NCBI RefSeq assembly: GCF_041248615.1
Contig: NZ_CP158426.1
Reading direction: 5' to 3' (one strand)
Length of the DNA stretch: 64,000 bases
From: Escherichia coli
GTDB taxonomy: Bacteria > Pseudomonadota > Gammaproteobacteria > Enterobacterales > Enterobacteriaceae
Below, one piece after another: positions 22,317 to 25,300 of the stretch. Position 1 is the first letter of the stretch. Every line of letters starts with the position of its first letter. The position numbers were made by a program.

Positions 22317-25300
22317 TGATGGGCGGTATTCTGAAACGGCGATTGTCGTGAGAACAGAATGGTTGCACCAGAATACAGATATAAAAAAACCGACATGACA
22401 GTCGGTTTTTTTATTTTTTCCGCCCAAGACTTGGTGGTTCCGGGCAGAAATGAAACAGTCCTCATCTAGCAAGTGAATTATAAGTCAGGATGCCTACATA
22501 TTCAAACAGCTATGCTGGCGATACAATCCCGACGCTAGTAGTGATACTGCCTCAAGGGATTACCGCAGTGCGGAAAAGTACTTTTAAGTCCTGGTCAGGA
22601 TACAGGTGGTGCTGATTCTGGTGCTCTAATTTGGAGAGAGGCAGTCCTCATCTAGCACATGAAGAAAATCATAGTTACAGGCAACGTAAGGGTAAGCTGT
22701 GATTGTCTTTCTCCCTTAAGGGAGCAACGGATGAAAACTTTTCTCGATAAAGTTCTCATCGTTCTTAAGGCGCTAATCGCGCTGCTGGAACTGATCCGTC
22801 AGTTTATTGAATAACTGAGGAAACGTAGCTAAGGCCGAAGGTTTACCACCTTCGGCCTTTAAAAAAACCGACATGACAGTTGGTTTCATATTTATTGCCA
22901 AAATGCACACTGTTCATGCCAGATGCGGCGTAAACGCCTTATCCGGCCTACACAATCTTGCAAAATCAATATATTGCACGATCCTCGTAGGCCTGATAAG
23001 CGTAGCGCATCAGGCAATCTAACGCCTGTCATCACCCCGCAAACTGCCTGAACAGCGCCTTACCCTTAACCAGCCGCGCGCCCAGCCAGCCGCCGAAAAG
23101 CGACAGCAGCAGCGCACCGCTGCACGGCAGCACAATCCACAATCGCCAGTCTGGCTCCCACGGGAAATCAAACACTTTCGCCTGCAACACTGCCAGCGCC
23201 GTTTCCGCACCCATTGCGGCCACCAGGCCAGAAACAAACCCGAGCATGGCGAACTCACACCACAACGTGGTGCGCAGCAGTTTTTTCCCCGCACCGAGTG
23301 TGCGCCACACCACCAGCTCCTGATGACGCTGACGCATTCCCACCTGCACCTGTGCCAGCAACAGCAACATACCGCAGGCGGTGACCAGCACCACCATCAC
23401 CTCCAGCGCCCGACTTACCTGCTCCAGCACCTGGCCGACCTGTTTTAAAATCGCGCCAATGTCTAACAGGCTAATGGTCGGGAACTGGCGGTTGAGTTGC
23501 GTCAACATGCCGTTGCCATTCTCCCAGCGGAAACTGGTAAGCCAGCTCTGCGGTTGCCCGTCTAATGCCCCTTCAGGGAAAATAAAATAGAAATTAGGCC
23601 GCAGACTTTCCCAGTCAACTTTGCGCAGGCTGGTCACTTTAGCGCGGAACTCCTGGGTATCGCCCATAAAAGTCACAGTATCGCCGAGGGCAACGTTTAA
23701 GCGTTTCGCCAGCCCCTCTTCCATTGACACTTCATCGGCTTTTGGCGGCCAGTTACCGGCGACAATCGGATTATGATCGGGCCGCGTATTTTGCCAGGTA
23801 AGATTGAGTTCGCGGTTAAGCGCCTCATCTTCATTGCCTTCTGTCGGCTTGTCGTTAATCGCCGTCAGTCGCGCCCGCACCACCGGATAAAATGATTCCG
23901 GGACTATCTGATGTTCCGCGAGGAACGTTTTTAGCGGCGTAACCTGTTCTGTGGCGATGTTGATTAAAAAGTAGTTCGGGCTTTCTGGCGGCAGTTGTTG
24001 TTGCCAACGGTCAAGCAAATCGCCACGCAACACCAACAGCAATGCCAGCAGCATAAAGGAGAGCGAAAATGCCGAAAGCTGGCTTAACGTTGACCACGGC
24101 TGACGTAACAGGCGGCTAACCGCCAGGCGCAGAGGTAGCGATTTCAGCGTCATGCGGCGAAGTACATTCAGCAGCATCCAGCCCAGCACACCGCACAGCA
24201 AAGCCAGTACTACCGCGCCCGCCAGCACCGCCCAGAGCAGCATACTGCCCCCCATTAATCCGGCGAGCAGCAGCACAACCACCACACTGACAATCGGCAG
24301 ATAAAACTTGAGCGGCCAGACGTTCGCGACCACATCATTACGTAATACGCGTAAAGGCTGCGTTGCCAGCAACAAGCGGTACGGTCGTAGCCCCACCAGC
24401 AGCGAGATGACCGTCATGGTGCCCAGCGCCCATAGCCACGGCCAGAGGCTGGCAGGCGGTAGTGCAGCAGGCAAAACGGGCTTGAGCAGCACCATCAACA
24501 CGTTTTCGAACAACAGGCCTATCGCCCCGCCGGTAACGGCTGAAAGCGTCAGCACCATCAACCACTGACCGACGATTAGCTTACGCAGTTGCGCTCGCCC
24601 TGCCCCCAGCGTTTTGAGGATCGCCACAAGATCGTAGCGACTGCGACAGTAATGATTCATCGCCACCGCCACCGCTGCCACTGCCAGCAGCAAGGTCAGA
24701 AGCGCCGAAAGCAGCAGGAACTGTTGCGAGCGTTCCATCGAGCGCCCCAGCGCGCCTTCGTCCTGTTCCAGACCGTACCAGCGTTGTTCGGGTTTAAGCT
24801 GAGGTAACAACCATTTCTCATAGCTGTCGAGCTGGTTCTCGTTGCCGCCGAATTTATAGCGCCAGGTGACCCGACTCCCCGGCTGCACGGCTCCGGTTTT
24901 ATCGACATCCGCCAGATTCATCATCAGACGCGGAGCCATCTGGAAGGGGTTAAAACCGGAATCCGGTTCCTGAATCACTTCTCCGGCAATCCGCAAGGTG
25001 GCATCGCCCACGTCAATGGTGTCGCCCGTTTTTAGGTTAAGCAGTGCCATCAGGCGTGGGGCCAGCAATACGCTGCCCGCCTGCGGTTTCAGGCCAGGGG
25101 GATTAGTTTGCAGATCGCCATACATCGGGTAGATATCATCCACCGCTTTGACGTTCGCCAGCTGCGGTGTGTCGCCTGCAAATGTCATGGTGGCGAAAGT
25201 CAGCTGCTTGCCGACTTTCAGGCCGCGCTTTTGCGCTTCCTCCAGCCACGCTTGCGGCACTTCGCGCGAACTGCGCAACGCCCGATCGCCCGCCATAAAC

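Follow-up and report, generated by a model that had tools for sequence, protein, structure and literature searches.

Genes and signals in the selU-ybbP spacer

We analysed a 64-kb stretch of Escherichia coli DNA (contig NZ_CP158426.1; hereafter the window), in which selU (mnmH; 21225-22319, plus strand) and ybbP (23032-25446, minus strand, its gene end at 23032) are separated by a spacer of 712 bp (22320-23031). An initial annotation had described this spacer as empty. Instead, it contains a 570-bp cassette (22334-22903) with a DinQ-like gene that is already annotated as a toxin and, on the opposite strand, a gene for an AgrB-like small RNA that scores in Rfam. Very probably (roughly 85%), this is a chromosomal type I toxin-antitoxin cassette that belongs to the DinQ/AgrB family as a dinQ-like (dql) paralogue. 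When 5426 complete E. coli genomes, the set to which the genome counts below refer, were searched, an identical spacer (100%) was found in E. coli strain KE55.

The toxin gene (22731-22814, plus strand) encodes a hydrophobic, DinQ-like peptide of 27 amino acids, MKTFLDKVLIVLKALIALLELIRQFIE, which matched the NCBIfam model NF041472 (toxin_DinQ) with 40.9 bits against a cutoff of 30. In KE55, the RefSeq annotation, made by the Prokaryotic Genome Annotation Pipeline (PGAP), has a coding sequence with the same coordinates, named "damage-inducible type I toxin DinQ" (dinQ). Identity with DqlB was rejected, since the corresponding model NF041473 gave only 24.5 bits, under its cutoff of 35, and DqlB has 31 residues rather than 27. 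A local Pfam scan of the 27-mer returned no match; homologues carry a precomputed match to PF28061 (DinQ). Note that the protein homologue search used a 51-aa extended open reading frame (ORF) as query. A 41-aa ORF (22490-22615) and the other short ORFs of the spacer were dismissed as unsupported. Across RefSeq, the toxin gene is called differently: with 27 aa in KE55, 51 aa in E2348/69 and 25 aa in a deletion allele, or not at all.

A putative -10 box of the toxin mRNA, TACAAT (22522-22527, plus strand), aligned with TATGAT of K-12 dinQ and with TATAAT/TATAGT of plasmid homologues. The predicted transcription start (+1), derived via the published K-12 numbering in which G195 marks the GUG start (PMC5066626), lies at ~22534; the +44 processing site would correspond to ~22582. 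Downstream of the ORF, a 12-bp G+C-rich stem followed by a short U run (about 22831-22862, plus strand; inverted repeat I6) forms the predicted terminator (-20.7 kcal/mol, z -5.2), the position and shape of which are conserved across the family.

The AgrB-like antitoxin small RNA is encoded on the minus strand (22381-22470; ~89 nt), 262 nt upstream of the toxin start codon and 65 nt from the predicted mRNA +1, without overlap. It matched Rfam RF02891 (AgrB) at 22469→22381 over the full model (1-84/84) with 53.6 bits, compared to a gathering score of 40. Its sigma-70 promoter, TTGAAT-17-TATAAT (22477-22505, minus strand), agrees with the consensus at 10 of 12 positions and was the sole promoter-like call in a scan of 22200-23150 (22505→22477). 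The -10 hexamer ends 7-8 nt before the first position of the Rfam model, and the RNA 5' end was predicted at 22469/70. In the predicted fold (-33.9 kcal/mol, z -5.4), an unpaired 5' tail is followed by a hairpin, the loop of which is CCACCAA, and by the terminator. The RNA could be aligned with K-12 AgrA/AgrB and nine other small RNAs of the family; compensatory pairs were present in both hairpins, and the 5' ~20 nt were the most variable part of the alignment. The one match to the Rfam model OrzO-P reached 24.1 bits (gathering score 60), was on the wrong strand and was driven by the terminator. The AgrB-like RNA is without annotation in the RefSeq records examined.

The small-RNA gene ends in one copy of a 26-nt hairpin sequence, present at 22383-22408 and again, apart from one mismatch, at 22861-22886. 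No third copy was found in the 64-kb window, and 0/100 shuffles gave any match. The similarity (repeat D1) reaches 40 nt at 83% identity (22382-22421 vs 22860-22899). Flanking similarity beyond these 40 nt was sought and none was detected, the local-alignment score being at the level of shuffles. Copy 1 of D1 (22382-22421) is a bidirectional terminator with a 14-bp stem, which the terminator scan called on both strands and which coincides with the terminator stem of Rfam AgrB. On the minus strand it is the terminator of the small RNA; on the plus strand it lies downstream of selU.

Pairing of the small RNA with the toxin leader

A 16-nt motif occurs exactly twice, at 22456 and 22642 (chance expectation 0), and as repeat D2 extends to 22 nt with 91% identity (22456-22477 vs 22642-22663). 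Copy 1 overlaps the 5' recognition tail of the small RNA (22446-22470, minus strand) and copy 2 the small-RNA target, or 'element 2', in the 5' untranslated region (UTR) of the toxin mRNA (22633-22657, plus strand). Because the toxin and small-RNA genes are read from divergent promoters, this direct repeat in the DNA amounts to complementarity between the two RNAs. Thus, both repeats noted in the initial annotation are real and non-random, and they do mark a small, internally related locus; the relation is that of an antisense RNA to its target, together with a terminator and its degenerate second copy, and not that of a duplicated module.

The small-RNA 5' end was predicted to pair with leader positions 22633-22656, 75-98 nt upstream of the start codon. 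The predicted duplex has 15-16 contiguous Watson-Crick pairs and 24 bp overall, with four G·U pairs and one bulged A. Its energy was -55.5 kcal/mol for the first 40 nt of the small RNA, as compared to -26.3 ± 3.4 kcal/mol for shuffled small RNA. The arrangement by which T1TAdb (PMC8594479) recognizes such pairs, a small-RNA 5' end complementary over at least 15 nt to a part of the toxin 5' UTR that precedes the ribosome-binding site, is present at the window locus.

We compared six loci: the window, K-12 dinQ, and the loci of a Serratia plasmid and of IncX1, IncX5 and IncK2 plasmids. All six have an AgrB-like gene that scores in Rfam, in the same divergent position. In 6/6 loci the target extends from -75 to about -106 to -114 relative to the start codon, while the target sequence differs. 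When six mRNAs were paired in silico with eight small RNAs, every mRNA preferred its own small RNA, with duplex energies of -39 to -51 kcal/mol for cognate and -15 to -37 kcal/mol for non-cognate combinations. This co-variation of the recognition sequences is the strongest comparative evidence for the cassette.

Cross-pairing between the window small RNA and dinQ is predicted to be poor. The window small RNA gave -46.6 kcal/mol with dinQ mRNA, similar to AgrA (-47.2 kcal/mol), which is experimentally inactive on dinQ (PMC5066626); AgrB gave -62.7 kcal/mol with dinQ and -35.9 kcal/mol with the window mRNA. With the mRNAs of the Serratia plasmid and of an integrative and conjugative element (ICE) of Salmonella, the window small RNA reached -20.0 and -32.3 kcal/mol, respectively. 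By duplex energy, all three of these cross-pairings were at the non-cognate level.

An additional contact was seen outside the recognition sequences. The invariant GGUGGUGC of the toxin leader (22604-22611), located in a conserved hairpin loop of the alignment fold, is complementary to the CCACCA loop of the first small-RNA hairpin (22430-22441), and RNAduplex adds this contact to the main duplex. The two loops might make the initial contact between the RNAs; alternatively, the complementarity may simply go back to a common origin of leader and small-RNA gene.

The leader of K-12 dinQ has four elements that pair in mutually exclusive ways: 1 with 2 and 3 with 4 in the inert full-length RNA, and 2 with 3 in the active, processed RNA. 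Binding of AgrB to element 2 recloses the hairpin containing the Shine-Dalgarno (SD) sequence (both PMC5066626). The window leader aligns with those of K-12 dinQ and of plasmid dql/dqlB genes through conserved blocks, and the pairings 1:2, 2:3 and 3:4 were all recovered in its predicted folds. In the minimum-energy fold of 22534-22865, the mRNA 5' end (element 1, a predicted cis lock; 22534-22552, plus strand) pairs with 22638-22656 in the small-RNA target region. The lock duplex between the first ~50 nt of the leader and the target region has an energy of -32.4 kcal/mol vs -20.7 ± 4.4 kcal/mol for shuffles, and a comparable lock was found in 7/8 family loci. Elements 3 and 4 comprise a pyrimidine tract and the SD sequence GGGAG (22720-22724) and form a predicted SD-sequestering hairpin (22708-22727, plus strand; inverted repeat I12), in which GGGAG pairs with 22711-22715 in the full-length fold. 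In the 5'-truncated fold, 22633-22639 pairs with 22708-22714, and blocking the target brings the SD hairpin back. In the RNAalifold consensus of six leaders, 16 pairs showed compensatory changes, the SD hairpin among them.

Taken together with the K-12 model, these folds suggest the following course. A weak sigma-70 promoter without a LexA box would produce a toxin mRNA of ~330 nt (roughly 22534-22862), encoding the 27-residue peptide, which would be located in the inner membrane, and the strong divergent promoter would produce the AgrB-like RNA of ~89 nt (22469→22381). By analogy with K-12 dinQ, the full-length mRNA would be locked, its 5' end pairing with the target region and its SD in the hairpin. 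Processing at the 5' end would free element 2 to pair with element 3, and the ribosome-binding site should open. The small RNA would then recapture element 2, letting the hairpin reclose and probably inviting cleavage by RNase III. This mechanism has been shown experimentally for dinQ/agrB of K-12 (PMC5066626, PMC3567139) and, using compensatory mutants, for dqlB/agrB of pOXA-48 (PMC12365149). By analogy, we infer that the window locus is transcribed, that its mRNA is processed, and that the peptide is toxic and repressed by the small RNA through base pairing. Small transcripts from ~22440-22860, for which the initial annotation had proposed to search, would indeed be expected.

Relationship to dinQ and other dql genes

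The window locus belongs to a known family that was described in 2016 and had a plasmid member validated in 2025; its toxin is in RefSeq and its antitoxin is detectable by Rfam. Literature searches for ybbP/selU with dinQ and for dqlA returned no paper describing this particular locus.

The cassette resembles K-12 dinQ-agrAB (PMC3567139, PMC5066626) in encoding a hydrophobic 27-aa peptide with the common core ALIALLELIR, preceded by a leader of ~195 nt with the conserved blocks AAGTCCTGG, GGTGGTGC, GTGCTCT, GACAGGCA and GAGTAAGC and an SD hairpin. Both systems have a divergent, non-overlapping small RNA of 82-89 nt, the 5' end of which pairs ~75-106 nt upstream of the start codon, and the window RNA shares the hairpin and terminator shape of AgrA/AgrB. 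In contrast to K-12, the window cassette is at another chromosomal site, has a single small-RNA gene, lacks a LexA operator and starts with ATG (GUG in K-12). The N- and C-terminal residues of the peptide differ as well, and the recognition sequences have diverged. The LexA box of K-12 dinQ, TACTGTATGATTATCCAGTT, agrees with the consensus at 15/20 positions and has both half-sites, whereas 22320-23031 contains no CTG-N10-CAG and its best consensus match was 11/20 with one half-site. The "damage-inducible" of the RefSeq name is thus unsupported.

The dinQ-agrAB locus between arsR and gor is present in 5422/5426 genomes (~100%), as compared to 24% for the window cassette; therefore, carriers of the cassette have both loci. 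The candidate assignment as dinQ proper, i.e. as the orthologue of K-12 b4613, was rejected: the gene has no LexA operator and is located between selU and ybbP with one small-RNA gene, not between arsR and gor with agrA and agrB. Given the missing LexA box, the different site, the separate presence of canonical dinQ and the poor predicted cross-pairing, the window gene is a dql paralogue, as Kristiansen et al. 2016 (PMC5066626) use the term, and not dinQ itself. That study described dql genes on chromosomes and plasmids of Enterobacteriaceae, some strains having dinQ too.

Like the dql genes (the dqlA and dqlB groups, including DqlB-agrB of pOXA-48; PMC12365149), the cassette combines a sigma-70 promoter, a Rho-independent terminator and a predicted four-element logic of the leader with an agrB-like small RNA of its own. 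The window peptide shares its C-terminus, LELIRQFI(D/E), with DqlB and the plasmid and ICE peptides. The window peptide is most like the type of the Serratia plasmid and the Salmonella ICE, (V/M)K-x-(F/L)-(I/L)-(D/E)-K...LKAL(I/V)ALLELIRQFID. The window gene would tentatively be placed in the dqlA group. The same agr(-)/dql(+) architecture was present on IncX1, IncX5, IncK2 and Serratia plasmids, in the Salmonella ICE and in Citrobacter werkmanii. Since the closest peptide relatives are found on the Serratia plasmid and the Salmonella ICE, acquisition of the cassette from a mobile element is suggested. In contrast to the plasmid-borne dql genes, the cassette is chromosomal and fixed at one site, and a role in plasmid addiction is therefore inapplicable.

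More distant parallels exist with zorO-orzO, tisB-istR1 and shoB-ohsC, which according to the literature likewise have a divergent, non-overlapping antisense RNA that pairs in a long 5' UTR, a toxin mRNA that requires 5' processing, and a small membrane-peptide toxin. The window cassette does not belong to any of these sequence families.

On a contig of Salmonella enterica (3640-4200), a dql/agr module encoding the closest peptide type (…LKALIALLELIRQFID) is inside an ICE among genes for TraG, DUF3438, DUF2895 and RAQPRD proteins. A scan of contigs with the motif GGTGGTGCN{7,10}GTGCTCT was too loose, almost all of the matches listed being due to chance; among them, the only useful family locus was that of C. 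werkmanii. A Yersinia aldovae locus from the same scan had no Rfam match at the gathering threshold.

Alternative cargos and alternative readings of the spacer

In K-12 MG1655, the interval between selU and ybbP is occupied by 7.3 kb with ylbG-ylbI-ybbD-ylbH-ybbC-rhsD, and the rhsD island is indeed missing from the 712 bp of the window, as the initial annotation had stated. Alignment of MG1655 with the window revealed nothing in common between 22322 and 23025: similarity is lost 2 nt past the stop codon of selU and picked up again 6 nt ahead of that of ybbP. FDAARGOS_1279 likewise had no sequence in common with 22322-23025, so that the spacer is not an unchanged conserved flank of rhsD. Both junctions of the K-12 island are close to the flanking stop codons (within ~20 nt for selU and ~10 nt for ybbP), i.e. 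in the same interval as the cassette. The two inserts are unrelated in sequence, 7.3 kb with an RHS toxin as opposed to a 570-bp RNA-controlled peptide toxin, and they are mutually exclusive alleles.

Using the joined ends of selU and ybbP as query, we found spacers of up to 800 bp in 1853 genomes. The cassette is present in 1326 genomes (24%), with a contiguous spacer in 1314/1326. RHS/ylbG islands occupy the interval in 2990-3310 genomes (~55%), and an island with an Hcp(TssD)-effector fusion and four DUF2931 genes in 574 (~11%). Cargo-free spacers of 58-240 bp, consisting of repetitive extragenic palindromic (REP) elements or a short unique stretch, were found in ~540 genomes (~10%). These four alleles cover essentially all genomes (2990 + 574 + 1326 + ~540 = ~5430). 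Note that all three cargos of the hotspot are toxin systems, and that the junction of the Hcp island is within the last codons of selU.

Comparison with the cargo-free alleles delimits the cassette. Alleles A24 and 702/18 read ...GGTATTCTG directly followed by TGCACRCTGTTCATGCC..., and at this point the window has exactly 570 bp extra, a single presence/absence block. At its junctions ATTCTG ends at 22333 and TGCAC starts at 22904, with a 2-nt TG ambiguity; no target-site duplication was detected there. RHS-bearing alleles keep neither the cassette nor the REPs, so that neither the RHS nor the dql allele arose from the other through a simple insertion. It is the cargo-free spacers that are truly empty, and the window, of whose spacer the RHS alleles retain nothing, carries one of several alternative cargos rather than representing the pre-insertion state of the Rhs site. 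Thus, in a quarter of complete E. coli genomes, a second DinQ-type module is located where an empty Rhs site had been assumed. Strains differ in their DinQ-family copy number at selU-ybbP, which is relevant to work on persistence, membrane toxins and small-RNA cross-talk.

Several observations weigh against a functional toxin-antitoxin pair in the spacer. The -35 hexamer of the toxin promoter is poor, and the promoter scan did not call this promoter. The minimum-energy fold of the truncated mRNA contains the 2:3 duplex, yet the SD is paired elsewhere, with the conserved GUGCUCU, and opening of the SD was not reproduced in silico. When 30 nt from the small-RNA 5' end are considered, the duplex of the window is the weakest cognate pairing of the six loci (-39.3 vs -41 to -51 kcal/mol). 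Moreover, ~140 and at most 196 of the 1326 carriers have a 108-bp deletion (22643-22750) between the 10-nt near-repeats AGTCCTCATC (22643) and AGTTCTCATC (22751), as counted from BLAST identity bands, a junction-specific count being blurred by the joining of alignment pieces. Lost through the deletion are the SD, the start codon and a portion of the small-RNA target; the small-RNA gene and its promoter are left intact. In enteropathogenic E. coli E2348/69, an element with an IS481-family transposase is inserted at 22505/22506, between the back-to-back -35 regions (7897-8943 of the extracted locus). In view of the deletion and of the insertion sequence (IS) between the promoters in this strain, the toxin is dispensable. 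The carriers are otherwise at least 99% identical, and conservation is therefore no proof of selection. In some deletion genomes, PGAP still calls a 25-codon 'dinQ' (2028-2105 of one extracted locus), the start of which would have to be ATT.

These points, together with the degenerate second terminator copy and the closest peptide relatives on mobile elements, would fit a decaying relic. The cassette would have been acquired once from a plasmid or ICE, be silent or harmless and persist by descent, the RNA and peptide no longer forming a toxin-antitoxin pair. The weak toxin promoter and duplex and the recurrent inactivation by deletion and IS would be expected in this case, and the near-identity of the carriers gives no evidence for purifying selection. 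However, in the window allele the ORF, the SD, both terminators, the small-RNA promoter and the 24-bp complementarity are all intact, and ~1130-1185 genomes retain the full form of the cassette. We therefore consider a relic rather unlikely.

A different question is how the second hairpin copy arose. D1 copy 2 (22860-22899) corresponds, in degenerate form, to the final 40 nt of the small-RNA gene; it starts right after the toxin terminator and ends 4 nt short of the right end of the cassette. It has a mismatch in the stem, and the predicted fold of either strand is weak (-8.5 and -6.3 kcal/mol; z -2.2 and -1.0). Members of the family often have additional agr copies: agrA and agrB are present in K-12, and the IncK2 plasmid has two copies. 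In C. werkmanii NBRC 105721 (4744-5900 of the extracted locus), a tandem [agr agr dqlB] is followed by [agr agr + degenerate dql leader, no ORF]. D1 copy 2 is probably what remains of a second agr gene that once stood in tandem, and on the minus strand it could damp read-through from ybbP. Alternatively, the hairpin copies might be the ends of a mobile or duplicated unit, a target duplication or the joint of a 478-bp tandem repeat, and copy 2 not a gene leftover. The two copies flank the agr-dql unit at a spacing of 478 bp, copy 2 is close to the right end of the block, and tandem arrays of agr-dql units do exist in C. werkmanii. However, the cargo-free alleles are without any copy, so that D1 copy 2 is not a duplicated target; copy 1 is located 48 nt within the 570-bp block and not at its end, and the absence of similarity outside the 40 nt offers no sign of a longer repeat. 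This origin appears improbable.

Returning to the toxin-antitoxin cassette, one could go further and picture a DinQ-type toxin that is independent of SOS, has an insulated antitoxin RNA of its own, and came from a plasmid or ICE into a chromosomal hotspot at which three unrelated toxin cargos alternate (type I toxin-antitoxin, RHS toxin, and Hcp-effector plus immunity genes). That ~10-15% of carriers have lost the toxin but kept the RNA would then reflect a second role, for example immunity against incoming dql addiction modules. We regard this combined scenario as a long shot. Still more doubtful is the idea that the AgrB-like RNA serves mainly other targets, through cross-repression of the resident dinQ or anti-addiction against incoming plasmid or ICE dql modules. 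This would explain why the RNA gene and its promoter are intact where the toxin is deleted, and the two systems do coexist, given canonical dinQ in nearly all genomes. However, in its predicted duplex with dinQ the window small RNA does not surpass the inactive AgrA, and its duplexes with the Serratia plasmid and Salmonella ICE mRNAs are non-cognate, making such a role very unlikely.

That an empty spacer with duplicated hairpin modules preserves the Rhs hotspot as it was before rhsD can hardly be upheld, for although the rhsD island of K-12 is absent from the window and the site is indeed a hotspot at which several inserts alternate, the spacer holds an annotated toxin gene and an Rfam-scoring antitoxin RNA, differs from the cargo-free 58-240 bp alleles by a single 570-bp block and has no sequence in common with the RHS alleles.

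Outside the cassette, the ybbP-proximal part of the spacer contains a REP pair, or bacterial interspersed mosaic element (22904-23020; inverted repeat I4), with thousands of genome-wide matches. It is identical in alleles Rb-50 and A24 and common to cargo-free alleles. Between its two arms, beside ybbP, lies a match to Rfam ES036 (CssrF) at 22952-22994 (plus strand; 40.3 bits, gathering score 37.6), which is probably REP-associated sequence and not a specific small RNA. In the 58-bp cargo-free spacer of BCE049, the ybbP-proximal hairpin CTACCAGGTAGAAATAAACGGCTTT is common to the right end of the Hcp-effector island (EC32); this spacer may be a deletion derivative of that island, or the hairpin an ancestral ybbP terminator. 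Elsewhere in the window, at 9293-9359 (minus strand), the Rfam small RNA STnc480 was matched with 84.9 bits (gathering score 72), unrelated to the spacer cassette.

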